This document shows, one piece after another, positions 14,242-30,980 of a DNA stretch of 64,000 nucleotides; position 1 is the first letter of the stretch; every line of letters begins with the position of its first letter. The stretch is from an uncultured Anaerolineae bacterium (GTDB lineage Bacteria > Chloroflexota > Anaerolineae > Fen-1058): NCBI GenBank assembly GCA_964353405.1, contig CAYGWJ010000121.1, positions 2,421 through 66,420 of the forward strand, given 5' to 3'. The position numbers were made by a program, and so were the translations under genes. The notes under the pieces were generated by a model that did not search any database, was not told where the DNA came from, and saw nothing but the letters and a program-made list of their open reading frames with translations.

Positions 14242-16536
14242 ATGAGACGCTATGCACTACCAGTGGGGATCGCCCTGTGCGTCGTCGGCCTGCTCGTCGT
14301 CCTGGCGGCCTGCGCCACGCCCACGCCCCCCCCTCCGCAAATCGTCAAAGAGACGGTCGTCGTCACCAAGGTCGTCGAGCCGACCAAGGCGCCGGCCGTC
14401 GCCGCAACGCTCGACCTGACAGCAAGCAAAAAGTCGCCCACGCTGCCATTCCTGGCTGACTGGCAGAAAGCGGGCCACTCTGATCCCACCGCAGAAGCCT
14501 TCAACCACTGGCCAACGGGTGGCGTGCCCACTGACTGCGCCAAGTGCCATACCTCTGAGGGATACCGCGAATTCGTCACCACCGGCAAGATCGAGAAGCC
14601 GATCCAGAACAGCGGCAGCTTGATCGACTGTGTCGCCTGCCACAACAGCGGCACGATGGATAAGACCAGTGTAAAGTTCCCCTCTGGCGCGACACTCAAG
14701 AACCTTGGCGCCGAAGCCCGCTGTATGGAATGCCACCAGGGCCGCGAGTCCACAGTCAGCGTGAACAACGTCATCTCCAACACCTTCAAGCTCAAGGATG
14801 CGGACGATGACACGGTTGTGAAACCGCTCGTGACAACGGACGCCGCTGGCAAAACCGTCACCACGACCTTCGGCTTCCGCAACATCCACTATTTCGCGGC
14901 TGCAGCCACGCAATATGGCACCCTGGCCAAGGGCGGTTACGAATACAAAGGCCAGTCGTATGACAGCAAGTTCCAACATCCTGAGCCGTATGACACCTGT
15001 GTGGGCTGCCACAACCAGCACACGTTGGAGTTGAAGCTGAAGGAATGCGCCACCTGCCATACTGGCGTCACCAAAGTCGAGGACATCGCCAAGATCCGCA
15101 TGAACGGCTCGCTAATGGACTATGACGGCGACGGCAATGCGAAGGAAGGGATCGCCGAGGAGTTGGCGGGCCTGCAGGAAAAACTGCTCGCCGCCATCCA
15201 GGCGTATGCCAAGGAAGTCGGCAAGGCCGACATCGCCTACAGCTCAACGGCTTACCCGTACTTTTTGGCGGACAAGAATGGCAACGGCAAGGCCGATGCT
15301 GATGAGACGGGAGTGTACACCGCCTGGACCCCGCGTCTGCTGAAGGCTACCTACAACTACCAGGTCGCCAGCAAGGATCCTGGCAAGCTGGCGCACAACG
15401 CCAAGTACGTCATCCAGTTGATGCACGATTCGATCGCGGATCTGAACACCAAGCTGGCCAAGCCGGTGGACATCGCGAAGGCAGTACGCAATGATGCCGG
15501 CCACTTTGATGGCACCGCTATGGCGTTCCGCGATTGGGATGCGGAGGGCGAGGTTCCGGCGGGCTGCGCCAAGTGCCACAGCGCCAAGGGCCTGCCTGAA
15601 TTCCTGGAGAGCGGCGGCACAGTCGCTGTGACGGCCGCCGGCTCGATCGTGACGACCGGCGTCGGCCCACAGGAAACCGCCAACGGTTTCGCCTGCACCA
15701 CCTGCCACAGCGACCTGACCAAGTTCACGGTGCGCCCGGTGGTGAATGTGCCGTTCCCCAGCGGCAAGAGCCTCACCTTCAGCAAGGAGAAGGATGACAA
15801 GGGCGCGCTCAAGCCAGTGGCTGCCAACCTGTGCCTGGAATGCCACCAGGGCCGCCAGTCCACGGCCGCCGTCAATACCAGGATCAAGGGCATTGACGAA
15901 GACAAAGTGGATGCCAAGGCCGCCTTCGCCAATGTGCACTACTTTGCCGCGGGCGCCACGCTCTTCGGCGATGCTGCGCAGGTCGCCTACCAGTATGATG
16001 GCAAAAAGTACGCCGGCCAGAATGCGCATGCGCCTGGCTTCGACACCTGCACCGGCTGCCACAGCACGCACGAACTCGGGGTCAAGATGGACAAGTGCGT
16101 GACCTGCCATGCCGGCGTCAAGACGCCCCAAGACATCCGCATGAACGCCAAGGATTTCGATGGCGACAAGGATGTGAAAGAAGGCATCTCGGCCGAGGTG
16201 ATGGCGCTAGAAGACAAGCTGTACGCGGCGATCATTGACTACAGCAAGACACTCACCAAGACAGCGATCGCCTACAACTCGGGCGCCAATCCGTACTTCT
16301 TCGTTGACACGAATGGCGATGGCAAGGCCGATGCGAAGGAGGCCGTGAGCGCCAATCGCTGGGCGGATTGGACGCCGCGCCTTCTCAAGGCCGCCTACAA
16401 CTACCAGTACGTCCAGAAGGATCCGGGCGCCTTTGCGCACAACCCCAAGTACGCCATCCAGATCCTCTACGATGCGCTGGAGGATCTCGGCAAGAAGGTC
16501 AAGGTGAACATGACGGGCCTGGCGCGGCCAGAGTAA
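14242..16536 (+). CDS. Decahaem c-type cytochrome lipoprotein with internal two-fold duplication
   Basis: Lipobox LAAC. Ten CXXCH motifs: CAKCH, CVACH, CMECH, CVGCH, CATCH, CAKCH, CTTCH, CLECH, CTGCH and CVTCH. The two halves align (...NGNGKADADETGVYTAWTPRLLKATYNYQ... against ...NGDGKADAKEAVSANRWADWTPRLLKAAYNYQ...). Confidence 0.85.
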   Translation: MRRYALPVGIALCVVGLLVVLAACATPTPPPPQIVKETVVVTKVVEPTKAPAVAATLDLTASKKSPTLPFLADWQKAGHSDPTAEAFNHWPTGGVPTDCAKCHTSEGYREFVTTGKIEKPIQNSGSLIDCVACHNSGTMDKTSVKFPSGATLKNLGAEARCMECHQGRESTVSVNNVISNTFKLKDADDDTVVKPLVTTDAAGKTVTTTFGFRNIHYFAAAATQYGTLAKGGYEYKGQSYDSKFQHPEPYDTCVGCHNQHTLELKLKECATCHTGVTKVEDIAKIRMNGSLMDYDGDGNAKEGIAEELAGLQEKLLAAIQAYAKEVGKADIAYSSTAYPYFLADKNGNGKADADETGVYTAWTPRLLKATYNYQVASKDPGKLAHNAKYVIQLMHDSIADLNTKLAKPVDIAKAVRNDAGHFDGTAMAFRDWDAEGEVPAGCAKCHSAKGLPEFLESGGTVAVTAAGSIVTTGVGPQETANGFACTTCHSDLTKFTVRPVVNVPFPSGKSLTFSKEKDDKGALKPVAANLCLECHQGRQSTAAVNTRIKGIDEDKVDAKAAFANVHYFAAGATLFGDAAQVAYQYDGKKYAGQNAHAPGFDTCTGCHSTHELGVKMDKCVTCHAGVKTPQDIRMNAKDFDGDKDVKEGISAEVMALEDKLYAAIIDYSKTLTKTAIAYNSGANPYFFVDTNGDGKADAKEAVSANRWADWTPRLLKAAYNYQYVQKDPGAFAHNPKYAIQILYDALEDLGKKVKVNMTGLARPE

Positions 16537-16848
16537 CTATCTGGAGTCTCGCTAGGGGGTAGACACCCGCTTTCCAGAGACACGGCTGCTCTCGCTCAAG
16601 GACCTCACCGGTAGCCTGGCGGTGGGCGCAACCGAGATGAAGTAAGTTCGTTTTTCGGGTGGTAAGGCAAGACGGGCCGGGGCTTTGTCCGGCCCGTCTT
16701 CCGGCAAGTCAGTCGTAATCGGGCGACAAGGTCGGCGCAGTGTCGCCTACAACATTCATCCCAGTTCGGATCACGCACTCATCTTGGGCCAGAGACTCTT
16801 GTTCTCTCTTTCACTCTGGCGAATCAAACCGAACGTAAGGAGACCAAC

Positions 16849-18000
16849 ATGATGGGACGCACTCGACGTCACATCCCAATCAGTCTGCTCGTCGCACTGA
16901 TGGCATTGGCTATCGCCGCACTCGTGTTCAGCACGGCCTCGGCCAGCGGGGCGAACGGCCCGGTCGCTTTGCCGACCATGCCGCCCACGCCGACGGGCGC
17001 GGATAACCAAAAGTGCCTGGCCTGCCACTCCAATCCGGCCCAGCAGATGAAGGCCGCCAACGGAGAGATCATCTCGCTCTACGTTGATCCAGACGCTCTC
17101 AAGAGCTCGGTGCATGGCGCCAAGAATGTGGCCTGTGTCCAGTGCCATAGCAACCTCTCAGGCTATCCGCACCCGGAGTACAAGCCAGCCGACCGGCGGC
17201 AAGTAACACTTGATCTCTACCAAGCCTGTAAACAATGCCACGGCGACAACTATCAAAAGACGTTGGACAGCGTTCACCAGAAAGCACTCGCTTCGGGCAA
17301 CCGCCTGGGCGCGACCTGCGCCGACTGCCACGGCGCGCACGACGTCCGCCCGCCCGATCAGCCGCGCTGGCGCATCGCTCTGACGTGCAGCAAGTGCCAC
17401 GGTGCGATTTTTAACCAGTACAAGGACAGCGTGCATGGCTCGGCACTGCAACAGGACAACCCCGATGTGCCCAGTTGCGTGGACTGTCACGGCGTGCACA
17501 ACATTCCTGACCCGATGACGCAGGCCTTCCGATTAAAGTCACCCACAGAGATGTGCGGCAAGTGCCACACCGATGCCAAACGCATGAGCAAATACAACAT
17601 CTCCACCGCCGTGCTCAATACCTACGTGGCCGACTTTCATGGCACCACCACCACGCTCTTCAAGAAGCAATCGCCTGACCAGGTTACAAACAAGCCCGTC
17701 TGTTTTGACTGCCACGGCGTGCACGAGATTGCCAACACCAAAGACCCCAAGGGCGGCCTGGCCATCAAGACCAACATGCTCAAAGCCTGCCAAAAATGCC
17801 ACCCGGACGCCACGACCGAAACCTTTGCCGCTTCGTGGACGAGCCATTACGAGCCTTCCCCGACCAGGTACCCGGTCGTCTACTATATTGACCTGTTCTA
17901 CAAGATTCTGATTCCGGCCGTGCTGGGCTTTATGATCTTGATGGTGCTCCTGGATGCTTTCTGGCGCATTCGCAATCGTTTTGCGGGGAAGGAGATCTAG
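16849..18000 (+). CDS. Nonahaem c-type cytochrome with a C-terminal membrane anchor
   Basis: Signal peptide. Nine CXXCH motifs (CLACH, CVQCH, CKQCH, CADCH, CSKCH, CVDCH, CGKCH, CFDCH, CQKCH). C-terminal TM helix ILIPAVLGFMILMVLL. Confidence 0.85.
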   Translation: MMGRTRRHIPISLLVALMALAIAALVFSTASASGANGPVALPTMPPTPTGADNQKCLACHSNPAQQMKAANGEIISLYVDPDALKSSVHGAKNVACVQCHSNLSGYPHPEYKPADRRQVTLDLYQACKQCHGDNYQKTLDSVHQKALASGNRLGATCADCHGAHDVRPPDQPRWRIALTCSKCHGAIFNQYKDSVHGSALQQDNPDVPSCVDCHGVHNIPDPMTQAFRLKSPTEMCGKCHTDAKRMSKYNISTAVLNTYVADFHGTTTTLFKKQSPDQVTNKPVCFDCHGVHEIANTKDPKGGLAIKTNMLKACQKCHPDATTETFAASWTSHYEPSPTRYPVVYYIDLFYKILIPAVLGFMILMVLLDAFWRIRNRFAGKEI

Positions 18001-18001
18001 C

Positions 18002-19525
18002 ATGGCCACCGAATCTCGAAAAATCTCGAGCCAAATCGCTCGTGGACAATATATCCGCTTTGATGTGCTGCAGCGAATAGAGCACATTCTTCTGCTGGTA
18101 TCGTTCACACTGTTGGGCATTACGGGCTTGATCCAGAAATTCGCGGCTTGGCCTGTCTCGGATGCGACCATCCAGTTCTTGGGCGGCATCGAAATGACGC
18201 GCCAGATACACCATATCAACGCCGCCATCATGATCATCCTGTCGGCCTACCACTTTGTGGAGGCGGGCTATCGGGTCTTTGTGCTGCGCGCGCGCATGAG
18301 CATGCTGCCCATGCTGAGCGACTTTACCGAGTGGTGGCAAGACACGACTTACAAGCTTGGGCTGACCAAGGCGCCGGCCAAGTTCGGGCGCTACAACTAT
18401 GGCGAAAAGATGGAATACTGGGCCTTGATCTGGGGCACAGTCGTCATGGGCATCACGGGCTTTATGCTGTGGAATCCCATCACCACGGCCAGGTTGGTTC
18501 CAGGCGAGTGGATTCCGGCCGCCAAAGCCGCGCACGGCGCCGAAGCGATCCTGGCGGTGCTCGCCATCATCATCTGGCACTTTTACAATGTGCACATCAA
18601 GATGTTCAACAAAGCCATGCTCACGGGCAAGCTGGATGAACACCAGATGGCGCACGAGCATGGCCGCGAGCTGGAAGCCATCGCTCGCGGCACGGCCGGC
18701 CGCAAGATTGACGCGCTGGTGCTGCGCCGCCGCCAGGTGATCTACTTTCCCCTCGCCACGGTGCTGGGAGTTGTGATGGCTTTCGGCATCTTTAAATTCC
18801 TCACCCTCGAGAATACTGCACCGATCAAGACCGTGCCGCCTGCGGTCAACGTCGCAGTACTAGTCACGGCAACGCCGCAACCCACGCCGACGCGCGCTCC
18901 GACCGCCGTGCCGACGACCGCTCCGACCCAAGCCCCATCGGCTGGCCAGGCACCGGCAACAGGCGGCGGCACCGCATTTGCAGATGTGCAAGCCATCCTC
19001 AAAGCCAAGTGCGGCGCCTGTCATGGCGATGCGGCGACCGCAGGTTTGAGCGTCAATACCTACGCCTCGCTGATGAAGGGAGGCGCGAGCGGAGCCGTCA
19101 TTGTCGCCAAAGATGCTGAAGGCAGCCCGTTGATCAAGAAGGTCACCGGCGCCCACCCCGGTCAATTCTCAGCGGACGAGCTGGCCGCTATCAAAGCCTG
19201 GATTGCAGCGGGCGCAGCCGAAGGTGGAGCACCCGCTGCTGCGCCCGCTCCGGCAGCCGGCGGCAAAGTGACCTTTGTCAAAGACATCCAGCCCATCTTT
19301 ACCGCCAAGTGCGCGGCCTGTCACGGCGTCATGGGCGGATTGACCTTGACCTCGTTTGAAAGTGTGATGCACGGGGGCACGTCCGGCCCGGCCGTTACAC
19401 CCAAGGACCCCGCCAAGAGTTCCATCATCACGAAACAAATCGCAGGCGGCCACCCCGGCCAACTCACAGCGGAGGAAATCGATTTGGTTCGCAAGTGGAT
19501 TGCGGACGGCGCAGCCGAGCAGTAA
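18002..19525 (+). CDS. Dihaem cytochrome b (FdnI/hydrogenase b-type family) fused to two monohaem cytochrome c (PSCyt-like) domains
   Basis: The N-terminus RFDVLQRIEHILLLVSFTLLGITGL followed by His-bearing helices matches b-type cytochrome PF01292. A PT-rich linker follows. Two repeats, FADVQAILKAKCGACHG... and FVKDIQPIFTAKCAACHG..., each end in ...GAHPGQ. The ATG at 18002 abuts the upstream stop. Confidence 0.8.
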   Translation: MATESRKISSQIARGQYIRFDVLQRIEHILLLVSFTLLGITGLIQKFAAWPVSDATIQFLGGIEMTRQIHHINAAIMIILSAYHFVEAGYRVFVLRARMSMLPMLSDFTEWWQDTTYKLGLTKAPAKFGRYNYGEKMEYWALIWGTVVMGITGFMLWNPITTARLVPGEWIPAAKAAHGAEAILAVLAIIIWHFYNVHIKMFNKAMLTGKLDEHQMAHEHGRELEAIARGTAGRKIDALVLRRRQVIYFPLATVLGVVMAFGIFKFLTLENTAPIKTVPPAVNVAVLVTATPQPTPTRAPTAVPTTAPTQAPSAGQAPATGGGTAFADVQAILKAKCGACHGDAATAGLSVNTYASLMKGGASGAVIVAKDAEGSPLIKKVTGAHPGQFSADELAAIKAWIAAGAAEGGAPAAAPAPAAGGKVTFVKDIQPIFTAKCAACHGVMGGLTLTSFESVMHGGTSGPAVTPKDPAKSSIITKQIAGGHPGQLTAEEIDLVRKWIADGAAEQ

Positions 19526-19649: not shown

Positions 19650-21731
19650 ATGTCAGATGATCCCAAGTCAAACGTTCCACATTCATCCTCTGAGGCCACC
19701 CCAGTCGCCGGCGCGGTGACAAACAAGCCTCGCTCTTTTGGGTCGAGGTTCTGGTCCAGGGTCAGCACCAACAAATGGCTGATGACCGGCACGATCGTCG
19801 TCACGCTGCTGATCCTGTTTGGGCTTTTCTTGGGCGGGATAGCTGTTTTTGACTGGAGTGAATCCACGGCGTTTTGTTCACTCTGTCACGTGATGAAGCC
19901 CGAGTACACGGCGTATCAAAGCTCGCCGCACTCTCGCGTGGAGTGCGGCACCTGCCACGTCGGCCCAGGCCCCACTGCCGCCGTCAAGGCCAAACTGGCC
20001 AACGTCCGATACCTGTGGGTGGCTCCCACCGGCTGGCATGAAAGGCCCATCCCTTCTCCCATCACCAGCCTACGCCCGGTCGAAGTGGTTTGCGAACAAT
20101 GCCACTGGCCGGAAAAGTTTTATCAGGATCGCCTGGCGACCGTCCCGCACTATGCAGAGGATGAGAACAACCGCCTGACGCAAATCAAGTTGCTCCTCAA
20201 GACTGGCGGCGGAACGCAAAACGCTGGCCAGGGACGCGGCATCCACTGGCACATCGCCAATCCCGTTTACTATATCGCGACCGACAAGCAGCGGCAGGAG
20301 ATAGACTGGGTTCAGGCTACTTTTGGCGGCAAGACAACCGAGTACCTCGCGACAGACAGCAAGCTGACGCCGGAGCAAATCGCCAAAGCCGAAAAGCGCA
20401 AGATGGACTGCGTTGACTGCCACAACCGCGCGACGCACGTCTTCCAGCGGCCAGGCGAGGCGCTCGACGCCGCCCTGGCAGCGGGCACCATCCCTGCCAA
20501 CTTGCCCTTCATCAAGCGCGAAGGGACCCAAGTACTGGAAAAGACCTACACGACCGAAGACCAAGCCGCCCAAGCGATCGCCGCTGTGGAAGACTTTTAT
20601 CGGACACAGTACCCCATGGTCTATAACAACCGCAAGGCGGATGTCCAGAAAGCCGTCGCCGGATTGCAGGCCATTTTTGACAGCACCCAGTTCCCCTTTA
20701 TGCGAGTGACCTGGGAGTCGCATCCGACGAACATCGGCCACAAGGATTTTGCAGGCTGCTTCCGCTGCCACGATGGCAAGCACCTGAGCCGAGACAACCA
20801 GGCCATCCGGCTCGAGTGCAATATCTGCCACAGCATCCCGCAGGTCATCACCCCGGACAAGACCACTGCGGCGCTGCCTCTGACCATCGGCATCGAACCG
20901 GATTCGCACAGAAGCACGACCTGGCTTGCGGAGCATCGTACCCGTTTCGATGCCACCTGCGCCAATTGCCACACAACCGGCAATGCCGGGGGCAATGACA
21001 ACAGTAGTTTTTGCAGCAATAGCGCCTGTCATGGCGCGAACTGGAAATTTGTCGGGCTGAACGCGCCCGGGGTGCGCCAACCGGGTCAACCTGCTCAACC
21101 TGCCCAACCGGCTCAGGGCAAGCCGCCTGCGATTCCGCATGATTTGGCCGGGCGCGACAACTGCCTGACGTGCCACAATCCTGATGGCGGCATCAAGCCC
21201 GCGCCCAAGGATCATGCCGGGCGCACGATTGACACATGCCAGGCATGTCACAAACCGACGACGGCTGCCCGTCCAACCGCAGCACCGACGGCGGCCGCCC
21301 CGACCACTGCGCCTTCAGAGGCGCCGACCAAGACAGCGGCCACGGCAACACCCGCCGCGCCGGCTGGAGGCGGCGCGCCGCCTGCCATTCCGCATGATTT
21401 GGCCGGGCGCGACAACTGCCTGACGTGTCACAATCCCGAGGGCGGCCTCAAGCCCGCACCGAAGGATCACGCCGGGCGCGCGAACGACACGTGCCTGGCG
21501 TGCCACAAGCCGTCAACGACCGCGCCTGCAGCTGCACCCACCAAGGCGGTAACTGCCACACCGGCTGCACCGTCAGGCGGCGAAGCGCCGCCGGCCATTC
21601 CGCATGACCTGGCCGGGCGCGACAACTGCCTGACGTGTCACAATCCCGAGGGCGGCCTCAAGCCCGCGCCCAAGGATCACGCCGGGCGTACGAACGATGC
21701 TTGCCAGGCCTGCCACAAGCAAAAGTCGTGA
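19650..21731 (+). CDS. NapC/NirT-family membrane multihaem cytochrome ending in three paired-CXXCH repeats
   Basis: N-terminal TM, then CSLCHVM, CGTCHVG, CEQCHW and CVDCHN, which match the NapC/NirT/NrfH quinol dehydrogenase fold. Further on are CFRCH, CNICH, CANCH and the variant CSNSACH. The protein ends in a three-fold repeat of PAIPHDLAGRDNCLTCHNPEGGLKPAPKDHAGRTNDxCxACHK separated by Ala/Pro/Thr linkers, about 14 haems in total. Confidence 0.8.
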   Translation: MSDDPKSNVPHSSSEATPVAGAVTNKPRSFGSRFWSRVSTNKWLMTGTIVVTLLILFGLFLGGIAVFDWSESTAFCSLCHVMKPEYTAYQSSPHSRVECGTCHVGPGPTAAVKAKLANVRYLWVAPTGWHERPIPSPITSLRPVEVVCEQCHWPEKFYQDRLATVPHYAEDENNRLTQIKLLLKTGGGTQNAGQGRGIHWHIANPVYYIATDKQRQEIDWVQATFGGKTTEYLATDSKLTPEQIAKAEKRKMDCVDCHNRATHVFQRPGEALDAALAAGTIPANLPFIKREGTQVLEKTYTTEDQAAQAIAAVEDFYRTQYPMVYNNRKADVQKAVAGLQAIFDSTQFPFMRVTWESHPTNIGHKDFAGCFRCHDGKHLSRDNQAIRLECNICHSIPQVITPDKTTAALPLTIGIEPDSHRSTTWLAEHRTRFDATCANCHTTGNAGGNDNSSFCSNSACHGANWKFVGLNAPGVRQPGQPAQPAQPAQGKPPAIPHDLAGRDNCLTCHNPDGGIKPAPKDHAGRTIDTCQACHKPTTAARPTAAPTAAAPTTAPSEAPTKTAATATPAAPAGGGAPPAIPHDLAGRDNCLTCHNPEGGLKPAPKDHAGRANDTCLACHKPSTTAPAAAPTKAVTATPAAPSGGEAPPAIPHDLAGRDNCLTCHNPEGGLKPAPKDHAGRTNDACQACHKQKS
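21118..21731 (+). repeat. Three near-identical tandem DNA repeats (~240 bp unit) encoding paired-CXXCH dihaem modules
   Basis: The run ccgcatgatttggccgggcgcgacaactgcctgacgtg(c/t)cacaatcc... occurs three times, starting at ~21136, ~21379 and ~21598. The repeats generate spurious alternate-frame ORFs. Confidence 0.85.
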
Positions 21732-21781: not shown

Positions 21782-23743
21782 ATGAGCACTACCGCCCTGG
21801 GATACATCTACTTTTTCTACGGCCTCGCGTTTTTTGCGATGGGGCTGGCGGTGGTGCTGGAAGCGGGCCGGACCAGCGAGTTGCGGTTCGCGCACTCGAT
21901 GCCGTGGCTGGCGGCCTTTGGCCTGACCCATGGCTTGCACGAGTGGTTTGAAATGTTTGAGGTGATGGGGCAATTGCCCCCTGGCCTGCCGCTGGGAGCA
22001 ATTCACCTCATCCTCCTGGTTGTCTCGTTTGCCTGCCTGGCAGCGTTCGGAATCAGCCTGGGCCGGACCGAGAGCGCGGCGCCGTTGGGCGCCATGTGGC
22101 GAACGCTGGCGCTCATCGGGTTCAGCCTGGGCGGCATGATCGTGTTGCGGCTCTGGCTGCCGCAGTCCGATTGGTGGGGAGCCGCCAGCGTCTGGGCGCG
22201 TTACAGCCTGGGGATCGTCGGCGCCATCGTTACCAGTTGGTCGCTCATTTCTCAAGGGCAAGTCTTTGCCAGGCTGGGCATGGCGCATTTTGGGCGCGAC
22301 CTGATCTGGGCAGCGCTGGCCTTTGCCCTGTATGGCATCGTCGGCCAGATGTTTGTGTCCAAGAGCGCGCTGCCGCCTTCGAACTTTATCAACTCTGATT
22401 TGTTCCTGCGGCTGTTCGGTGCGCCTGTTCAGTTGTTCCGAGGCGCGATCGCGATGGTGCTGGCCGTCACCATCATCCGCGCGCTGCGCGTGTTCGAGAT
22501 CGAACGCACACAGCGACTGCGCGCAGCGGAGCTGACGGCCCAGGAAGCTGAGCGGCGCGTCCAACAGGAAACGGCGCACCTGAACCGCCAATTGCAGGAA
22601 GCGGTCAACGAGCTATCCATCCTGTTTGAAATGTCGCGCATCCTGGCGGCCACGCTGGACTGGCAGGCTGTGCTTCAACAAGCCGTCGTCAAGGTCGTTG
22701 ACCTGCTGCCCGCTCGCGCGGCGATGATCCTGCTGGAAACGGATCCGCCGGGAAGCTGCGCCGCGAGCACAGGCTTTTGCCGCGCAGAGTTGGCTGGCGC
22801 CGCCCAGAGCATAGGTCGGGCCGTCATCACCGCCAACGCCGATAACAACGAATTCGCTGTTCCGCCCGAGATGCGCGTGCTGGCTCCGATGATGGCCGTG
22901 CCTTTGCACCTTTCGGGCAAGCGCGGTCTCATCGGCAGCCTGGTCATTTGCGTGAGCGACGTGCACATCTTTGAACCCAAGCGGTCGCTATTGCTCACGC
23001 TGGGCCGTGAGCTGGCCATCGCCATCGAAAACGCCCGGCTTTACCAGCAAGTCCAAGAGCGCGAGATGGTGCGCGGCGAACTGCTGCGGCGTTCGGTGCA
23101 GGTTCAGGAAGAAGAGCGCAAGCGCATCGCCCGCGAGCTGCACGACGGCATCGGCCAGATCTTTACCGCGCTGGCGCTGGGGCTTTCGGGTGTAGAAGAA
23201 ACCATGCCGCGTGACCCGGCGCTGGCGCGCAAGCAAATCGGCAATCTCAAAGACTTGGCCGTTCGCGCCATCTCTGAGCTGCGTCAACTGGTGGCCGATC
23301 TGCGGCCCGCGCAGTTGGACGACCTGGGCCTGGCGCCCGCGCTCCACTGGCTGACCGACGAGTGGCGCGACCGGCTTCACATGGATGTGCGCGTTCAAAT
23401 TCTAGGCCAGCGCCGTCGCCTGTCGTCGGAAATGGAAACCGTGCTGTTTCGCATCACGCAAGAAGCGTTGACCAACGTCGCCAAGCACGCCAACGCGCAG
23501 CGCACCGCCGTCAAGCTGGCTTTTGGCGATGACCAGGTCGAGCTGGTCATCGAGGATAATGGCATCGGCATGACGCCGGAACAAATGTACCGCCGCCAGG
23601 TTCGCCATCAAGGCTGGGGACTGGCTGGCATCCAGGAACGCGCCGCTCTCGTCGGCGGCACATTCGATATTGACTCGGCGCCGGGGCGAGGCACCCGGTT
23701 GACCGTCCACATCCCACTTGGTGGCGAGGAGGCCGTTGCATGA
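21782..23743 (+). CDS. Polytopic sensor histidine kinase with GAF, HisKA_3 and HATPase_c domains (NarX/LiaS-type)
   Basis: The ATG at 21782 (MSTTALGYIYFFYG) opens a ~7-TM N-terminal sensor domain. A GAF-like region and the HisKA_3 H-box (RIARELHDGIGQ) follow. G-box: DNGIGM...GWGLAGIQERAALVGG. The ORF-track start at 21635 is a repeat artefact. Confidence 0.85.
   Translation: MSTTALGYIYFFYGLAFFAMGLAVVLEAGRTSELRFAHSMPWLAAFGLTHGLHEWFEMFEVMGQLPPGLPLGAIHLILLVVSFACLAAFGISLGRTESAAPLGAMWRTLALIGFSLGGMIVLRLWLPQSDWWGAASVWARYSLGIVGAIVTSWSLISQGQVFARLGMAHFGRDLIWAALAFALYGIVGQMFVSKSALPPSNFINSDLFLRLFGAPVQLFRGAIAMVLAVTIIRALRVFEIERTQRLRAAELTAQEAERRVQQETAHLNRQLQEAVNELSILFEMSRILAATLDWQAVLQQAVVKVVDLLPARAAMILLETDPPGSCAASTGFCRAELAGAAQSIGRAVITANADNNEFAVPPEMRVLAPMMAVPLHLSGKRGLIGSLVICVSDVHIFEPKRSLLLTLGRELAIAIENARLYQQVQEREMVRGELLRRSVQVQEEERKRIARELHDGIGQIFTALALGLSGVEETMPRDPALARKQIGNLKDLAVRAISELRQLVADLRPAQLDDLGLAPALHWLTDEWRDRLHMDVRVQILGQRRRLSSEMETVLFRITQEALTNVAKHANAQRTAVKLAFGDDQVELVIEDNGIGMTPEQMYRRQVRHQGWGLAGIQERAALVGGTFDIDSAPGRGTRLTVHIPLGGEEAVA
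22844..22861. promoter_or_regulatory. 18-bp element AACAACGAATTCGCTGTT, copy 2, inside the kinase coding sequence
   Basis: Exact match to copy 3. It encodes NNEFAV in the GAF region. Confidence 0.35.
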
Positions 23744-24411
23744 CGATCAAGATTGTGCTCGTGGACGATCACGAGATCGTGCGGGCGGGCCTGAGGATGC
23801 TGCTCAGCTCGCACTCGGACATTGAGATCATCGGCGAGGCTGAAAACGGCCAGCAGGCCTTGCAGCTCTGCCAAAAGAACCCGCCCGATGTCGTCATTAT
23901 GGACATCACCATGCCGGGCCTCAGTGGGCTTGAAGTCACGCGCCAGATCAAGCAGCAATGCCCCAACACGGCCGTGCTGGCGCTCACCATCCACGAAGGC
24001 GAGCAATACTTTTTCGAGATGCTCAACGCGGGCGCTTCCGGTTACGTCCCTAAACGCGCCGCGCCCACCGACCTGGTGAATGCCATCCACGCTGTGTATT
24101 CCGGCGAAGTGTACCTGCATCCAAGCGTCGCCAAGGCGCTCGTCAACGATTACATCCAACGTGTTCAGATGGGCTGGGAGCGCGCCAGCTACGACGGACT
24201 GACCGACCGCGAGCAGCAGGTCCTCAAGATGATTGCCGAAGGCATGATGAACAAAGAGATCGCCGAAAAGCTCTCGATCAGCGTGCGGACGGTGGAGCGG
24301 CATCGAGAGAACATTATGGCCAAGCTCAACCTGCACACGCGGGCCGAGCTGGTGCGCTATGCGGTAGACAAGGGACTGATTGACATCAGCAACAAGCCGC
24401 CTTCAGAGTAG
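23740..24411 (+). CDS. NarL/FixJ-family response regulator (REC plus LuxR-type HTH)
   Basis: REC domain sequence IVLVDDHEIVRAGLRMLL...VVIMDITMPGLSG...LALTIHEGEQ. LuxR HTH LTDREQQVLKMIAEGMMNKEIAEKLSISVRTVERHRENIMAKL. The gene overlaps the kinase stop. Confidence 0.9.
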   Translation: MTIKIVLVDDHEIVRAGLRMLLSSHSDIEIIGEAENGQQALQLCQKNPPDVVIMDITMPGLSGLEVTRQIKQQCPNTAVLALTIHEGEQYFFEMLNAGASGYVPKRAAPTDLVNAIHAVYSGEVYLHPSVAKALVNDYIQRVQMGWERASYDGLTDREQQVLKMIAEGMMNKEIAEKLSISVRTVERHRENIMAKLNLHTRAELVRYAVDKGLIDISNKPPSE

Positions 24412-24538
24412 CCCCTGGGAAGTCCCAGGGGTAGCACCGCACAAATCCAGGCGTCCCCACCCCACTCTAGGGATTTTCCCACATAGCGCGTTCGACCCGA
24501 TGTCGGCGGGATGGGTGGAAACACGCATCCCGGCCCCC

Positions 24539-24556
24539 AACAACGAATTCGCTGTT
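24539..24556. promoter_or_regulatory. 18-bp element AACAACGAATTCGCTGTT, copy 3, in the intergenic region between the two response regulators
   Basis: Exact 18/18 match to copy 2. Confidence 0.5.
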
Positions 24557-24602
24557 CAAATCACCCTATCTCTCATCCAAATTGGTATGCCACCACATGC
24601 TG

Positions 24603-24633
24603 AAGTTGGGACGTGTGCCCAATTGACGTGTCA
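24603..24633 (+). promoter_or_regulatory. 31-bp promoter-like element, copy 1, upstream of the second response regulator
   Basis: Sequence AAGTTGGG-N5-TGCCCAATTGACGTGTCA. It contains a TTGAC -35-like hexamer and a TGAC-NN-GTCA palindrome. Confidence 0.45.
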
Positions 24634-24806
24634 GACTCTTGCATGGTAGTCTGGTATCAGAGGAAAGCGGTTCGCCCTTTGATGCTGGACCTCGTCAAAG
24701 GAAACTTTGTAGGGCGGCTTTCCATAGCCGCCGCGCTGGGGGCAGGTATGGACGCGAAGCGTGCCCTACAAGGGGCTCTCCGACAGGGTTCTAGATCGAA
24801 TTTGGT

Positions 24807-25404
24807 ATGATGATCCGAGTCGTTCTGGTGGATGACCAGGAGATTGTGCGCGCCGGGCTGCGCCTGCTGCTCCAATCTCAGACAGACATGGACATCGTAG
24901 GCGAGGCCGGCGATGGCGCCGAGGCGCTCGCACTTTGCCGCCAGGTTTCTCCCCACGTTGTGATCACCACCATCGAACTGCCGGGCCTCAATGGTTTCGA
25001 GCTCGCGCGCAAGCTCAAAGCGCAAAGACCCACAGCACTTTTTCGAGATGATCAGTGCGGGCGCATCCGGCTACCTCCCCAAGCGCACTGCCACCGCTGA
25101 CCTGGTGACCGCCATCCGCACCGTCCATGCGGGTCAAATGTACATACATCCCACGGGTTATCACCAGCGCACCTACGCAAGCCATGAACGCCCCCGCCCC
25201 AACGACCTGGAGCCGCATGAACAGCTCGTCCTCGTCATGATTGCCCAAGGAGCGCAAAACAAGCAAATCGCGCTGCGGCTTGGGGTCAATGTGAGAACCG
25301 TGGCGCGCTATCGAGCGAATATCGAGAACAAGCTCAACCTGCACAGCCGGGCCGACCTGGTGCGCTATGCGGTGGACAAGGGCCTGGTGAGCGCGGCCCC
25401 CTAG
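24807..25404 (+). pseudogene. NarL-family response regulator paralog disrupted by an internal deletion and frameshift
   Basis: ORFs 24807..25100 and 24991..25404 lie in two different frames, and both align to the upstream regulator. The segment equivalent to NTAVLALTIHEGE is missing (about 41 nt; the conserved Thr of the REC domain is lost). The C-terminal LuxR HTH is intact. Confidence 0.55.
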
Positions 25405-25566
25405 AGCGCTGGCGACCAGGCAAAAATGCATCGTCCTGCTCGCACTCCCTCATTGCGCATGGGTTTCCCCCCCCCACACACCCCCTCATTCATTGACGGT
25501 TGCCCCACTTGAATCGTGCGTGACTACCCTCTAGGGTGATCAGAATATTGGGGATATGGGCGCAAC

Positions 25567-25597
25567 AAGTTGGGTGGCCTGCCCAATTGACCTGTCA
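25567..25597 (+). promoter_or_regulatory. 31-bp promoter-like element, copy 2, upstream of the octahaem cytochrome operon
   Basis: AAGTTGGG-N5-TGCCCAATTGACCTGTCA. It is 26/31 identical to copy 1, with identical spacing. Confidence 0.45.
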
Positions 25598-25663
25598 TGG
25601 GGCAATGTGATACCTTTGTGTCAGCAGAACCAGGTGAATGGCCTACACACAAAGGAGAAGAAA

Positions 25664-26446
25664 ATGTCCACTACACGCGTTGTCTTTGCCGTCTTTCTCA
25701 TGACCGTTGTGACGGCGTTCGTGGTGAGTGTGTGCGCGGCAGGAGTGGCGTATGCCGCTGGCCCTGAGCCACAGCAACAACCAGACTGCGCCACTTGCCA
25801 CTCGGAAGTCGCCAAGACGTGGGGAGGGGGCAAACATGCTATCAAAGGTATTGCCTGCACGGCATGTCACCAGCCCGGCCCCAATGCCCACCCTGGCAGC
25901 CCGATAGGTGTTGACAAGTCGGCCGCGTTTTGCAGCACTTGCCATTCCGCCGCGGGCACAGAGTGGCAAACGAGCGGTCATGGCAAGGCCAACGTCGCGT
26001 GCACTTCGTGCCACGACATGCACTCAGCCTCGCTCAAGTTCAAGGCGCCGACTGACCTGTGCGCAAGCTGCCACAAGGAGCGCGAAGACCAAAGCAACAT
26101 GCCGATGGACAGCTCGACCAACGCGTGCATCAACTGCCATATGCACAGCACGGCTTCCGGCACAACCGCCACCAACCCCACTCCCTCCAACCACTCTTTC
26201 GTCATGGGAGCGGACGCCTGCCAGCGCTGCCACAAGGATAATGTCCACACAGCGCATCAAATCATTTCTACGGTTTTGCCCCAGCCTGGCGCCGACAAGC
26301 CCGTCCAACAACTTGTGCCCACCGCAACGCTTGCCGCCGCGAGTGCCGCATCGAACGGCGTCTCGGCCTGGCCCAACATCATGGGCGGCGTGATCGGAGG
26401 GCTTTTGCTTGGCTTTATTTCGGCTGTCGTCGTGGTAAGGAGATAG
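25664..26446 (+). CDS. Octahaem c-type cytochrome with a C-terminal TM anchor (NrfB/QrcA-like electron-transfer subunit)
   Basis: AAGGAG Shine-Dalgarno before the ATG at 25664. Signal peptide. CXXCH motifs: CATCH, CTACH, CSTCH, CTSCH, CASCH, CINCH and CQRCH. C-terminal TM helix IMGGVIGGLLLGFISAVVVV. Confidence 0.8.
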   Translation: MSTTRVVFAVFLMTVVTAFVVSVCAAGVAYAAGPEPQQQPDCATCHSEVAKTWGGGKHAIKGIACTACHQPGPNAHPGSPIGVDKSAAFCSTCHSAAGTEWQTSGHGKANVACTSCHDMHSASLKFKAPTDLCASCHKEREDQSNMPMDSSTNACINCHMHSTASGTTATNPTPSNHSFVMGADACQRCHKDNVHTAHQIISTVLPQPGADKPVQQLVPTATLAAASAASNGVSAWPNIMGGVIGGLLLGFISAVVVVRR

Positions 26447-26448
26447 GA

Positions 26449-27240
26449 ATGAGCGATACGAAACTCTCTCGGCGTGATTTTTTGAAATACGCCGGTCTGG
26501 CCGGAGGCGGTTTGCTCGTCGTCGAATTGTTCGGCACGGGCGCAGTCTCGCCGCTCAATCCATCCAACGCCGTCGCGGGCGACAGGGTCAAAGAAGCGCA
26601 AAGCAAGCACAAGTGGGTTATGGTCATTGACCAGAGCAAGTGCATCGGCTGCAACTATTGCACCTATGCCTGCAAAGCGTTCAACGATATCCCCGGCGAT
26701 GCGCAATGGAACACGGTCAGCGTGGAAGGCTCAACCGACAAAGGCCCGGCTTATCTGCCGCGCCCGTGCCAGCATTGCGAAAACGCGCCGTGCGTGGAGG
26801 CCTGCCCGGTCGGAGCGACGTATCACCGCGCCGATGGGCTGGTCGAGATGGATTACGACAAGTGCATCGGCTGCCGCTACTGTCAAGTGGCCTGCCCATA
26901 TAATGCGCGCGTGTTCAACTGGCAAGACCCGGCCAAGCTCGCCAACTCCTATGTGCCCGAGTGGGGCACGCCGGACATTCCGCGCCGTAAGCGCGGCGTG
27001 GTAGAAAAATGCACTTTTTGCGCGCAGCGCATTGACCGTGGGCTGGCACAGGGATTGACCCCCGGCGTGGACCGCGACGCAACGCCCGCGTGTGTGAATG
27101 TCTGCCCGGTGCGTGCGCGGTTGTTCGGCGACTTTTACGATCCCACAAGCCCCGCGAGCCGCGCGCTGGCTCAGCACCGCAGTTTCCGCCTGCGCGAGGA
27201 TCTGGGCACCAATCCGCGCGTGTACTATCTGCCCGCGTGA
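26449..27240 (+). CDS. TAT-exported 4Fe-4S ferredoxin-type subunit (NrfC/PsrB/DmsB family)
   Basis: Twin-arginine signal SRRDFLKYAGLAGGG. Four Cys clusters: CIGCNYCTYAC, CQHCENAPCVEACP, CIGCRYCQVACP and CTFCAQR...CVNVCP. Confidence 0.85.
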   Translation: MSDTKLSRRDFLKYAGLAGGGLLVVELFGTGAVSPLNPSNAVAGDRVKEAQSKHKWVMVIDQSKCIGCNYCTYACKAFNDIPGDAQWNTVSVEGSTDKGPAYLPRPCQHCENAPCVEACPVGATYHRADGLVEMDYDKCIGCRYCQVACPYNARVFNWQDPAKLANSYVPEWGTPDIPRRKRGVVEKCTFCAQRIDRGLAQGLTPGVDRDATPACVNVCPVRARLFGDFYDPTSPASRALAQHRSFRLREDLGTNPRVYYLPA

Positions 27241-27260: not shown

Positions 27261-28520
27261 ATGACGATGACAACCTTTGCACAACATTTTCGGTTCAAGC
27301 TCACACCTTTTAGAATATGGATCATCATCCTCGCTCTGATGTGTGCCTTTGGACTGTACGCCGGGATCCTGGTCTTTATCAACGGTCTGTCCATCACGGG
27401 GATGTCTGATCGCGTGCCGTGGGGATTGTGGATCACGATTGACATTTCCTCTATCGGGCTGGGGGCTGGCGCGTTCCTGCTCTCGGCTGCCGTTTACTTG
27501 CTCGGGCTGAAAAAGTACGAACCCATCGCTCGCGTGGCCGTCTTTGTCGGCCTGCTGGGATACACCAGCGCCCTGCTCACGCTATTGCTCGACATTGGCC
27601 GCCCGGATCGCTTTTGGCATGGTCTGGCGTTCTGGAACACACACTCGCTCCTGTGGGAAATCATCATGTGTATCACGCTTTACCTCACAGTGCTCATGGT
27701 CGAGTTTGCGACGATTGTGGCCGAGCATCGCTTCTTTGCGCGCTGGCCCTGGGTCGGCAAGCTGGCTCATCAAGCGCACAAGCTGATGCCGGTGCTGGCT
27801 GTGGTGGGCATGGGTCTCTCGCTCTTGCACCAGTCCTCGCTGGGCGCGGCCTACGGCATCATCAAAGCGAGACCCGTGTGGTACAAGCCTACCATGCCGC
27901 TGATGTTCATCGCACAGGCCATCGCCACCAGCCCGCTGCTTGTCGTGGCGCTGTCCATCATCGTGAGCCGGCTGCGGGGCCGCGAGTTGGTCCGTCAAGA
28001 ACTGCTGTCGGCCGTCGCCCGGTTCAGCGGCTTTGCGCTGCTCGTGTATGCCTACATGCGCTTTTGGGATTTCCTGGCGATGGACTATTCGTATCTGCCG
28101 GTCCGCGCCGAGTCCATGGAACTGCTGACCAGCGGCCCACTGGCCTACAATTTCTGGACCTTTGAAGTGTTCCTGGGCATGGTGATTCCGCTTGTGATCC
28201 TGTTCGACAACAAACTGCGGCACCAAAAAGCGGCTCTGATCGTGGCCGGCTTTCTGGTAGCGTTCGCCCTCATCGTCAACCGCTGGGATACCAACCTGAT
28301 GGGTTTGCTGGTGCCGTTGGCCTATACCACTGCCGTCCTACCTAAAGCTGAGATCAGCTATTCGCCGACTTGGATAGAATGGGCCACGGCGGGCGGCATA
28401 TTGGGCTACTGGTTGATGGCATTCTCGCTGGGCGTCAAGTATTTGCCCATCTTCAAGCAAGAACCGGGGACCAAGGACGAACACGTTGTTGCTCAGGCGC
28501 CCGCACTGGCGCAAGCTTGA
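27261..28520 (+). CDS. NrfD/PsrC-family polytopic membrane quinol-interacting subunit
   Basis: ATG at 27261 (MTMTTFAQHF). About 10 TM helices, including the conserved NrfD-family region ...LLLDIGRPDRFWHGL... Confidence 0.85.
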   Translation: MTMTTFAQHFRFKLTPFRIWIIILALMCAFGLYAGILVFINGLSITGMSDRVPWGLWITIDISSIGLGAGAFLLSAAVYLLGLKKYEPIARVAVFVGLLGYTSALLTLLLDIGRPDRFWHGLAFWNTHSLLWEIIMCITLYLTVLMVEFATIVAEHRFFARWPWVGKLAHQAHKLMPVLAVVGMGLSLLHQSSLGAAYGIIKARPVWYKPTMPLMFIAQAIATSPLLVVALSIIVSRLRGRELVRQELLSAVARFSGFALLVYAYMRFWDFLAMDYSYLPVRAESMELLTSGPLAYNFWTFEVFLGMVIPLVILFDNKLRHQKAALIVAGFLVAFALIVNRWDTNLMGLLVPLAYTTAVLPKAEISYSPTWIEWATAGGILGYWLMAFSLGVKYLPIFKQEPGTKDEHVVAQAPALAQA

Positions 28521-28665
28521 GCAAAGCGCACATCACCCACTCGAAGCAGGCCCGGCTGACACAAACTGGCAGCTAGAAATGGGGCAGTCACCCAATAGAC
28601 CTGACACACAGTTTGGTGTAAACTGCAATCAAAAGGGTTGGCAAGAGTGGAAAGGAGAATGAAAA

Positions 28666-29040
28666 ATGAACGCGCAAACAATCCAAGATATCTTTATAGT
28701 TGCTGGGATGTTCTTTCTGCGCATTGGTCTGCCGCTTCTCGTCGTCATGGGCCTGGGGTATCTGATTCAACGCTGGCTGGAGCCTAAAGCCGTGCATGAG
28801 CAATTCGAGGGAATTGTACGCAGCACACACGAACGAGCGGCGGCTCCGGTGACGCGACAGTACGCCCTATCGGGCGAGGCGGCCAACAAGTATGCAGTCT
28901 GCACGACCAACCTGCAAACGGATATTCCGTGTTGGCTCGCCCGCCAGATCGCCGGTCAGACATTGCCGGAAGGCTGCGCCACTTGTAAAGTGCGCACGCA
29001 GATCAACGCCGACGCGATGGACGTGAAACGCGCCAGCTAA
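28666..29040 (+). CDS. Hypothetical small membrane-anchored protein with 4 Cys
   Basis: N-terminal TM, then Cys residues in CTTN...PCW...GCATCK. It is the last gene of the NrfD-type operon, immediately before the terminator. Confidence 0.4.
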   Translation: MNAQTIQDIFIVAGMFFLRIGLPLLVVMGLGYLIQRWLEPKAVHEQFEGIVRSTHERAAAPVTRQYALSGEAANKYAVCTTNLQTDIPCWLARQIAGQTLPEGCATCKVRTQINADAMDVKRAS

Positions 29041-29252: not shown

Positions 29253-30980
29253 ATGGAGCGCGAGTTGCATAGCCTGCTCACGGACGACAACCCGGACGGC
29301 CGCTCATCACTGGAGCGTGCAAGCCAGCGTCAATCGTTGCAGAGAGCTGAAAGCCTCTACCACGCCCTCTTTGACAGCATTCCCGTTGGCCTGTACCGCG
29401 CTGCGCCGGACGGGCGCATCACAGACGCCAACCTGACCCTGGCGCGCATGGTCGGTTATCCCGACCGCGAGTCTTTGCTGTCCAGCCATGCGCTCGACAA
29501 GTACATCTCCTCGGAAGACCTCGAGAGTATGCAGACTCTCCTGGAAAGCCAGGGGACCGTCCGTGAATTCCAAACGCGAATGCAGCTTCCGGATGGAACG
29601 GCGCAGTGGCTGGAGCACAACGTGCAGGCCATTCGGGATGCCAATGGCAGGGTACTGTATTACGATGGGACCGTTGAGGACATTACAGCGCGAAAACGGG
29701 CGGAAGAAGCCCTTCAGCGGCGCAACCGCGACCTGGCCCTGTTCAATCAAATAGGACAGACGCTCACCGCCACGCTGGACCTGCGCCAGGTCATGAAGCA
29801 GGTACTCGTCACAGTCACACAAACTCTCGGCGCGGAGGGCAGTTCAGTTTGGTTGTGGGACGAACAGCGTGAAGGTTATTTGATTTGCCGGGCCGCTTCT
29901 CACCCTGTCCCCAATGAAGCCTTGATCAACATGCGCCTGCAACCCGGCCAGGGTATTGCGGGCTGGGTGGCGCAGAGCGGGCAGAGAGCCAATGTGCCAT
30001 CCGCCCCCAACGATCCGCGCTTTGCCGAAGCCATTGACGCCAAGACCGGCTTTCGCACCCTGTCACTGCTGGCCACACCGCTGCGCGTGCGGGAGACCGT
30101 CATCGGTGTGCTGGAAGTGGTCAACAAGTTGGGCGGCGAGTTTGACGCGAACGACGGCGCGCTGCTCGAAACGCTGGCGACCTGGGCCGCGATTGCCATT
30201 GATAACGCGCAGTTGGTCGAAACACTCCGCCAGCGCACCGTGGAGCTTCAGGAACGCAACGAAGAACTGGACGCCTTTGCCCACACGGTGGCCCACGATC
30301 TCAAGAACCCCTTGGGCCTCATCCTCGGTTATTCGGAGCTTTTGGAGCATGACTTTACCAGCCTGCCGGAGGTAGATCAGCAGCGTTGCCTGCAGACCGT
30401 TCTGCAATGCTCCTTCAAGATACAAAACATCGTGGACGAGCTGCTTTTGCTTTCAGAAGCACGCAAGGCTGAAGCGATACATCACCCGCTGGATATGGCG
30501 AGCATCGTGGCCGAAGCTCGGCGACGCTTGTCGCGCATGACGGAAGAGTATCATGCGGAGATGATCGTCCCGCCCGCTTCGGCATGGCCGGTGGCTATGG
30601 GACACGCCCCGTGGATAGAGCAGGTGTGGGTCAACTATATCAGCAACGCGCTCAAGTATGGCGGGCGTCCTCCGCGCGTGGAGCTGGGCGCGGACCCACC
30701 TTCGGACGGCACGGTGCGCTTCTGGGTGCGCGACAATGGCCCCGGCTTTACCCCAGAGGAGCAGGCCCGCCTGTTCACGCCGTTCACGCGGCTGGCTCAG
30801 ATGAGTGTCGAGGGGCATGGCCTGGGGCTATCCATCGTCCAGCGCATTGTGGACAAGCTCGGCGGGCAAGTGAGCGCGGAGAGCCGGGTCGGCCAGGGCA
30901 GCGTCTTTAGCTTTACCCTGCTCGCCGCACTGCCCTCGTCCGAGGTGCCCGACTGGGTAGTTTTCACCAGTCAGCCGTGA
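29253..30980 (+). CDS. Cytoplasmic PAS-GAF sensor histidine kinase
   Basis: No TM helix. PAS region LFDSIPVGLYRAAPDGRITDAN. GAF region ...GQGIAGWVAQSGQRANV...VIGVLEVVNK. HisKA H-box FAHTVAHDLKNPL. HATPase G-box GHGLGLSIVQRIVDKLGGQV. Confidence 0.85.
   Translation: MERELHSLLTDDNPDGRSSLERASQRQSLQRAESLYHALFDSIPVGLYRAAPDGRITDANLTLARMVGYPDRESLLSSHALDKYISSEDLESMQTLLESQGTVREFQTRMQLPDGTAQWLEHNVQAIRDANGRVLYYDGTVEDITARKRAEEALQRRNRDLALFNQIGQTLTATLDLRQVMKQVLVTVTQTLGAEGSSVWLWDEQREGYLICRAASHPVPNEALINMRLQPGQGIAGWVAQSGQRANVPSAPNDPRFAEAIDAKTGFRTLSLLATPLRVRETVIGVLEVVNKLGGEFDANDGALLETLATWAAIAIDNAQLVETLRQRTVELQERNEELDAFAHTVAHDLKNPLGLILGYSELLEHDFTSLPEVDQQRCLQTVLQCSFKIQNIVDELLLLSEARKAEAIHHPLDMASIVAEARRRLSRMTEEYHAEMIVPPASAWPVAMGHAPWIEQVWVNYISNALKYGGRPPRVELGADPPSDGTVRFWVRDNGPGFTPEEQARLFTPFTRLAQMSVEGHGLGLSIVQRIVDKLGGQVSAESRVGQGSVFSFTLLAALPSSEVPDWVVFTSQP

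Follow-up and report, generated by a model that had tools for sequence, protein, structure and literature searches.

A 31-bp box that occurs twice in the 64,000-nucleotide stretch of Anaerolineae DNA analysed here (the window, to which coordinates refer unless a locus of a relative is named) is a real, conserved and probably functional cis-element, and comparison with relatives makes it reasonably likely that the box represents a sigma-70-type promoter core with a built-in operator, controlled by RR1, the response regulator of a neighbouring two-component system. Box 1 (AAGTTGGGACGTGTGCCCAATTGACGTGTCA; 24603-24633, + strand) has the form AAGTTGGG-N5-TGCCCAATTGACGTGTCA and lies before the remains of a paralogous regulator gene, RR2, while box 2 (AAGTTGGGTGGCCTGCCCAATTGACCTGTCA; 25567-25597, + strand) has the form AAGTTGGG-N5-TGCCCAATTGACCTGTCA and precedes a multihaem cytochrome operon. 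The initial annotation of this DNA had reported the two copies at these positions with 26/31 identity and equal internal spacing, and all of this was reproduced. The TTGAC -35-like hexamer and the TGAC-NN-GTCA palindrome that it described inside the box are both present as well, the hexamer reading TTGACG in box 1 (24623-24628) and TTGACC in box 2 (25587-25592). In addition, the box contains an inverted repeat, TTGGG-N7-CCCAA, which abuts TTGAC and had gone unmentioned. A degenerate box pattern allowing up to three mismatches found boxes 1 and 2 and no other site in the 64-kb window (expected number 0.00 from 100 shuffles), and a weight matrix built from relatives gave them 49-50 bits, with the next-best site in the window at -3. 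This gap, together with the shuffle expectation of 0.00, ruled out a chance repeat as the origin of the boxes. When the two window units were compared, the intergenic DNA around boxes 1 and 2 was unalignable apart from the box itself.

The cytochrome behind box 2 belongs to a rare family, with 34 matches in 5.8 billion proteins, and contigs with homologues at 44-78% identity carry the same box just upstream. Altogether the box was found in about 25 independent relatives from uncultured Anaerolineae. A pattern scan of representative genomes returned one site in one Anaerolineae MAG, and a relaxed pattern scan of metagenomes returned 23 contigs; the conservation alignment, drawn from metagenomes and one Anaerolineae MAG, held 26 boxes after removal of near-duplicates. 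One relaxed-pattern match among the 23 contigs (L013, 1073-1102) was rejected as chance, being on a low-GC contig without flanking conservation and with a leucine-rich-repeat-like ORF downstream. The contig with a cytochrome 82% identical to that of the window (L001) is uninformative on the box, as it begins 181 nt upstream, inside a small leader ORF. Box 2 and its orthologues agree at 29-31 of 31 positions in seven loci (L002, L004, L016, L017, L019, L026, L030), and orthologues of box 1 precede RR2 in nine (L009, L012, L017, L020, L021, L023, L025, L026, L029). Every box in the relatives is oriented toward its downstream gene. Conservation in orthologous promoters had been named by the initial annotation as a check on its proposal that one factor co-regulates the cytochrome module and the regulator paralogue. 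The box proved near-invariant before both units: before cytochrome operons, even though the encoded cytochromes share only 43-48% identity, and before RR2 in at least four diverged clades. The putative co-regulation is well supported by this comparison.

The geometry of the conserved positions is that of a promoter. Across the 26 non-redundant boxes TTGAC is invariant, with G, C or T as the sixth -35 base, and TG.TA...T follows without exception exactly 18 nt after TTGACS, with zero indels between the blocks. Also invariant is T.CC..ATTGAC.TGTCA, and the AAGTTGGG block is nearly so, with rare changes at its third and fifth bases. In the window the extended -10 elements are TGgTAGTCT for promoter 1 (24644-24652, + strand) and TGaTACCTT for promoter 2 (25608-25616, + strand), each 18 nt past the -35, with predicted transcription start sites at about 24659 and 25623, respectively. 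From the latter the 5' UTR would be about 41 nt long, with AAGGAGA as Shine-Dalgarno sequence. The second box had been said to end about 67 bp before the cytochrome start codon; its position stands, and the measured distance to the ATG at 25664 is 66 nt. Counted from the start of the box, relatives have their first start codon with a strong Shine-Dalgarno sequence at 76-109 nt. The proposal that TTGAC acts as a -35 is borne out by the invariant TGnTAnnnT at its fixed 18-nt spacing and by the Shine-Dalgarno sequence and start codon beyond. The box thus has the anatomy of a sigma-70-type promoter, in which a TTGAC -35 and an extended -10 are held 18 nt apart, upstream DNA is conserved as well, and a start site can be predicted. 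A consensus promoter scan of 24300-25800 called nothing, because the -10 hexamers (TACCTT and TAGTCT) match TATAAT at only 3/6 positions. To our knowledge, the promoter consensus of Chloroflexota is itself poorly known.

Upstream of the -35, the putative operator comprises two parts. The AAGTTGGG-N5-TGCCYRA block, at about -56 to -37, is the predicted site of a dedicated regulator. A distal element, RAAWTGGGG, at about -79 to -70 and two helical turns upstream, is predicted as a second site for it. In the relatives' alignment a tGGGG block stands 21-22 nt 5' of AAGTTGGG and the rest of the intergenic DNA is unconserved; in most boxes RAAWTGGGG and AAGTTGGG repeat one another directly at a distance of 21-22 nt. 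Promoter 2 carries this distal element as AATATTGGGG (25544-25553, + strand), which includes the conserved tGGGG block and, at about -79 to -70, sits 22 nt 5' of AAGTTGGG. Promoter 1 has a weak counterpart, AAATTGG (24579-24585, + strand), 24 nt 5' of AAGTTGGG. Only the window clade, with 8 of the 26 boxes, has the perfect inverted arm CCCAA, and most others read CCTGA or CCCGA; a symmetric dimer site, as far as the alignment tells, is not generally conserved in the box. Further downstream, promoter 2 carries a dyad, TGATAC-N4-GTATCA, over its -10 and predicted +1 (25608-25624); the dyad recurs at the same place in other boxes, with symmetric variants such as TGCTAC...GTAGCA (L012, L022), and 8 of the 26 sequences break the symmetry there. 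This dyad may be a second operator or may have no significance. Both it and the invariant TGTCA in the spacer fall outside a model with an upstream activator, and may be marks of a second factor or a repressor.

Three classes of genes only are found behind the box: the cytochrome-NrfC-NrfD operon, RR2 (with a second box and then the cytochrome operon after it) and a small protein, P124. The first gene of the operon (25664-26446, + strand), identified by Pfam and by its homologues, encodes a membrane-anchored multihaem c-type cytochrome. The initial annotation had called it an octahaem protein; it has seven canonical CXXCH motifs, not eight. Besides a signal peptide it has a C-terminal hydrophobic anchor. 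It is followed by genes for a NrfC/DsrO-like, TAT-exported 4Fe-4S protein (26449-27240, + strand; Pfam, with NCBIfam DsrO scoring 216.8 bits, above its cut-off of 200) and for a NrfD/QrcD-like integral membrane, quinone-interacting subunit (27264-28520, + strand; Pfam NrfD, with QrcD as the best NCBIfam model, below its cut-off). Behind these genes lies a third, diverged box, GAAATGGGGCAGTCACCCAATAGACCTGACA (28576-28606, with the promoter extending to 28624, + strand), which matches box 2 in register at 19/31 positions and is the third-best weight-matrix match in the window. Its -35-like hexamer is TAGACC (28596-28601), and a 17-nt spacer separates this from the -10 TAAACT (28619-28624). This diverged variant is also conserved before P124 in L009 (twice), L018, L007 and L028, and a full box precedes P124 in L010, L014, L028 and L032.

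P124 itself (28666-29040, + strand) is a protein of 124 aa that starts with a TM helix and ends in a Cys-rich tail; it is conserved, and belongs to the gene set that the box is predicted to control. Pfam and NCBIfam searches gave zero matches for it. Its motif is PCWE.KNC...C...DIPCW...EGC..C.V, with seven Cys in most members; the first two Cys are missing in the window copy and in L009b. P124 always accompanies the cytochrome/NrfCD cluster or carries a box of its own. The first cistron after almost every box is a conserved hydrophobic peptide of 29-43 aa, in most clades of 40-43 aa (e.g. MTTETLTLISLLVIRVIVPVSLTLAIGITLGQLEERRGGQAG), which resembles the N-terminal TM segment of P124 (BLAST, 35-41% over about 34 aa). 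Genes for such leader peptides lie at 7850-7978 in L004, at 2433-2522 and 3467-3595 in L009, at 4802-4924 (- strand) in L010 and in many other loci. In the window clade the leader peptide before the cytochrome is lost, and a degenerate remnant persists after box 1, at about 24683-24811. Beyond P124, the window encodes a second kinase, a soluble PAS-GAF-HisKA protein (29253-30980), and in L010 P124 is followed by a GAF-HisKA_3 kinase and a receiver-only regulator.

The gene pair that probably serves the box lies upstream of box 1. A sensor histidine kinase with a multi-TM N-terminus and HisKA_3 and HATPase_c domains by Pfam (21782-23743, + strand; start uncertain, with the longest ORF beginning at 21635) is followed by RR1 (23740-24411, + strand), a NarL/LuxR-family response regulator (Pfam Response_reg and GerE) with an intact phospho-acceptor Asp (VVIMDITMPG). 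The closest solved relatives of RR1 are VraR, NarL and DevR, and NCBIfam offered no equivalog for either RR1 or the kinase. Orthologues of the kinase, 65-96% identical, adjoin RR1 in L004, L011, L021, L025, L028 and L030. The kinase-RR1 pair is found upstream of the box in nine loci and is non-adjacent in four (L009, L010, L022, L033). RR1, unlike RR2, always retains its Asp. Its HTH region (NKEIAEKLSISVRTVERHRENIM.KLNLHTRAELVRYAVDKGLID) differs by no more than a single A/S change across loci in which cytochrome identity has dropped to about 45%. This invariance mirrors that of the box. All non-chance occurrences of the box sit in one gene cluster, which fits a dedicated local regulator over a global one. 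Based on this association, RR1 is most probably the factor that binds the box, and the position of the site makes it probably an activator. The best matches to the consensus sites of NarL (TACYYMT, 7-2-7), DosR and NreC were no better than those of 14-98% of random window segments; by this comparison the box is a new motif that matches no described consensus.

Transcription from promoter 1 may be separate from that of RR1. One base past the RR1 stop codon lies a perfect 8-bp GC-rich hairpin with a 4-nt loop, CCCCTGGG AAGT CCCAGGGG (24412-24431, + strand), with a folding energy of -21.2 kcal/mol (z = -4.2) and no T-run, which may act as a terminator of the kind that lacks one. A scan of 24300-25800 for T-run terminators left this hairpin uncalled and called none between box 1 and the cytochrome gene. 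The strong hairpin behind RR1 and the lack of a called terminator before the cytochrome together suggest that promoter 1 starts a separate transcript.

Upstream of the kinase, the window also encodes a NapC/NirT-type multihaem protein (19650-21731) that ends in three tandem modules of about 60 aa (PPAIPHDLAGRDNCLTCHNPEGGLKPAPKDHAGR...C.ACHK; about 21200-21730), whose repeat DNA yields identical weak matrix matches at 21413 and 21623. Still further upstream, 14242-19525 holds multihaem cytochromes of 764 and 383 aa and a cytochrome b561/c fusion, so that the whole is a large electron-transfer island. A search before these upstream cytochromes (14242-19525) found no boxes.

RR2 (24810-25404, + strand) is a NarL-type paralogue of RR1 and a pseudogene in the window, with stops in its translation; where RR1 has its phospho-acceptor Asp, RR2 carries Thr (VVITTIELPG). 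The initial annotation had described a degenerate regulator, and this is a decayed gene: against the intact orthologues of L002 and L026 it shows a frameshifting deletion of 38 nt and a further deletion of 21 nt. The Asp position is occupied by Thr, Ala, Gly or His in all 12 readable copies, from 11 loci (the window, L002, L009, L012, L015, L019, L022, L023, L026, L027, L029 and L030), by which RR2 is classed as an aspartate-less (pseudo-)receiver response regulator, i.e. one whose REC domain lacks the phospho-acceptor Asp. RR1 with its downstream spacer is collinear with RR2 and its downstream spacer; the coding regions are about 74% identical, and the spacers align only at the box. Intact copies of RR2 occur in L002, L026 and L030. 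The lesions elsewhere differ from strain to strain: two frameshifts (+1 and -1) and a 78-nt deletion in L020 (485-1105), a loss of 570 nt between boxes at 2384 and 2777 in L021, and a 141-nt in-frame deletion in L017 (451-966), the latter two in box-oriented coordinates. Such different lesions in four strain variants indicate, at the level of sequence, ongoing loss of the gene in the window clade. Both boxes are intact in every strain in which RR2 is damaged (the window, L020, L021 and L017), and L004 has the box with no RR2 between RR1 and the cytochrome operon. As the box is kept where RR2 is deleted (L021) or absent (L004), RR2 is not needed for its maintenance.

These observations bear on other explanations of the box. 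The lead given by the initial annotation was a global regulator of the CRP/FNR type that would bind the TGAC-NN-GTCA dyad, and this is very improbable. TTGAC.TGTCA is indeed invariant in all boxes, and the genes behind them are respiratory, the typical target class of FNR. But the motif comparison that had been suggested turned out negative, with at least 4/10 mismatches to TTGAT-N4-ATCAA and TGTGA-N6-TCACA at either box, as in 76-81% of random window segments. The dyad is moreover of 4-2-4 form and centred at about -31, inside and after the -35, rather than a 5-4-5 or 5-6-5 dyad at -41.5, and it is lost in the diverged variant before P124 (TAGACCTGACA). The grouping of all non-chance boxes in one gene cluster again points to a dedicated local regulator, and RR1 is the likelier binding factor of the two. 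Scarcely more credible is an RNA reading, in which the conserved block would be transcribed and fold into a structured leader ahead of the small ORFs and cytochrome genes, its hairpins formed by UUGGG/CCYRA and UGAUAC/GUAUCA. In the first dyad almost every right-arm change is a transition that preserves a G-U or G-C pair (97.8% of cells pair), two cases of U-A to C-G occur there, the second dyad has A-U, C-G and G-U variants, and only 10 of 500 shuffles matched the covariation score. Only one pair is changed on both sides, however, and 8 of the 26 sequences break that pair, while the left arms hardly vary. An Rfam search gave no family, its sole match at E<5 being a chance miRNA on the opposite strand. 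Hairpins do not account for the invariant columns, which coincide with TTGAC and TGnTAnnnT set apart as in a promoter, and the strong hairpin behind RR1 speaks against read-through into box 1.

Alternatively, box 1 of the window could be a functionless relic of a tandem duplication of regulator and promoter, left before a dead gene. The two units, RR1 and RR2 each with its intergenic DNA, are collinear paralogues, and RR2 and the leader ORF are decayed in the window, with RR2 otherwise damaged in L020, L021 and L017. This reading is unlikely, if less so than those above. Box, RR2, box and cytochrome follow one another in L009, L012/L023/L029, L017/L026 and the window clade alike, and because these clades are distant this layout is taken as ancestral rather than as the relic of a recent duplication. 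A recent tandem duplication as the whole explanation was rejected for the same reason. The duplication is old, with the layout kept between clades at a cytochrome identity of about 45% and with RR2 as a distinct Asp-less lineage, and box 1 and its -10 are intact in all strains with damaged RR2, including L021 with its 570 nt deleted. Still, the decay of RR2 may be too recent for box 1 to have eroded. A further question is whether the factor is RR2, regulating itself, or an RR1-RR2 heterodimer, instead of RR1 alone. RR2 stands under a box and between both boxes in at least four clades, its recognition helix (VRTVARYR) is akin to that of RR1 (VRTVERHR), and a heterodimer within the NarL family has a precedent in BldM/WhiI (PMC4125116). 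Since frameshifts in RR2, its large deletion (L021) and its absence (L004) all leave the boxes intact, we regard this with considerable doubt.

Under the preferred reading, in which RR1 controls a promoter core with a built-in operator, the HisKA_3 kinase would partner RR1, and RR1 would activate the box promoters. The result would be a small local regulon with three members, namely RR2, the quinone-linked complex of multihaem cytochrome, NrfC and NrfD, and the Cys-rich membrane protein P124. In this strain, with RR2 decayed, promoter 1 would now either reach the cytochrome operon by read-through of the dead gene or be vestigial. A more elaborate circuit can be envisaged and is offered as speculation with a small chance of being right: RR1 would switch on RR2, both would act jointly on the same box, e.g. 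as a heterodimer, and the 40-aa TM peptides that come first in the operons, as paralogues of the P124 anchor, would feed back on the multi-TM kinase and so tune the quinone-linked multihaem complex. If true, this would be a previously undescribed, self-contained form of regulation in uncultured Anaerolineae. We know of no work on transcriptional control in this Anaerolineae lineage. For it, the box offers a precise cis-element with predicted start sites for the regulation of multihaem cytochrome/NrfCD genes, and would tie one candidate two-component system to a three-member regulon that can be traced in metatranscriptomes. The strains of the window clade form a natural series in the loss of an Asp-less paralogue, RR2. 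No general principle is altered by the box.

Among known systems, class II sites of FNR and CRP share with the box a short dyad near the -35 of a respiratory operon, but the length, spacing and position of the dyad are wrong and the match to their consensus is not above background. With the extended -10 (TGn) promoters of sigma-70 the box shares TTGAC, the fixed 18-nt spacer, a TG one base before TAnnnT, a predicted leader of 35-50 nt and a strong Shine-Dalgarno sequence. Its -10 is weak (TACCTT, TAGTCT) in comparison, and the five bases that follow the -35, TGTCA, are invariant in the box, whereas ordinary promoters do not require them. The nrf operon of E. coli is controlled by NarL and NarP, and promoters that depend on NarL/FixJ response regulators with a LuxR-type HTH (pnrf and narG of E. 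coli with their NarL/NarP heptamers, the boxes of LiaR/VraR and DosR) likewise involve a HisKA_3 kinase and a NarL-family regulator beside the target. In addition, short repeats that may be half-sites lie upstream of and abutting the -35, and the target is a respiratory one with an Nrf-like cytochrome and NrfCD. In contrast, the box is unrelated to TACYYMT, the 7-2-7 arrangement, and the sites of DosR and NreC, its candidate half-sites are two direct AAnTTGGG repeats at a distance of 22 nt with a partly inverted CCYRA, and binding by RR1 is inferred. Finally, in BldM-WhiI of Streptomyces, a typical and an atypical NarL-family regulator act as a heterodimer (PMC4125116). RR2 differs in that its gene lies in the locus itself and, like the target operon, stands behind the box, and in being dispensable in several strains; an RR1-RR2 heterodimer is putative. 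The likeness lies in the pairing of a regulator with a paralogue that lacks the canonical phosphorylation residues, both of them tied to one set of promoters.
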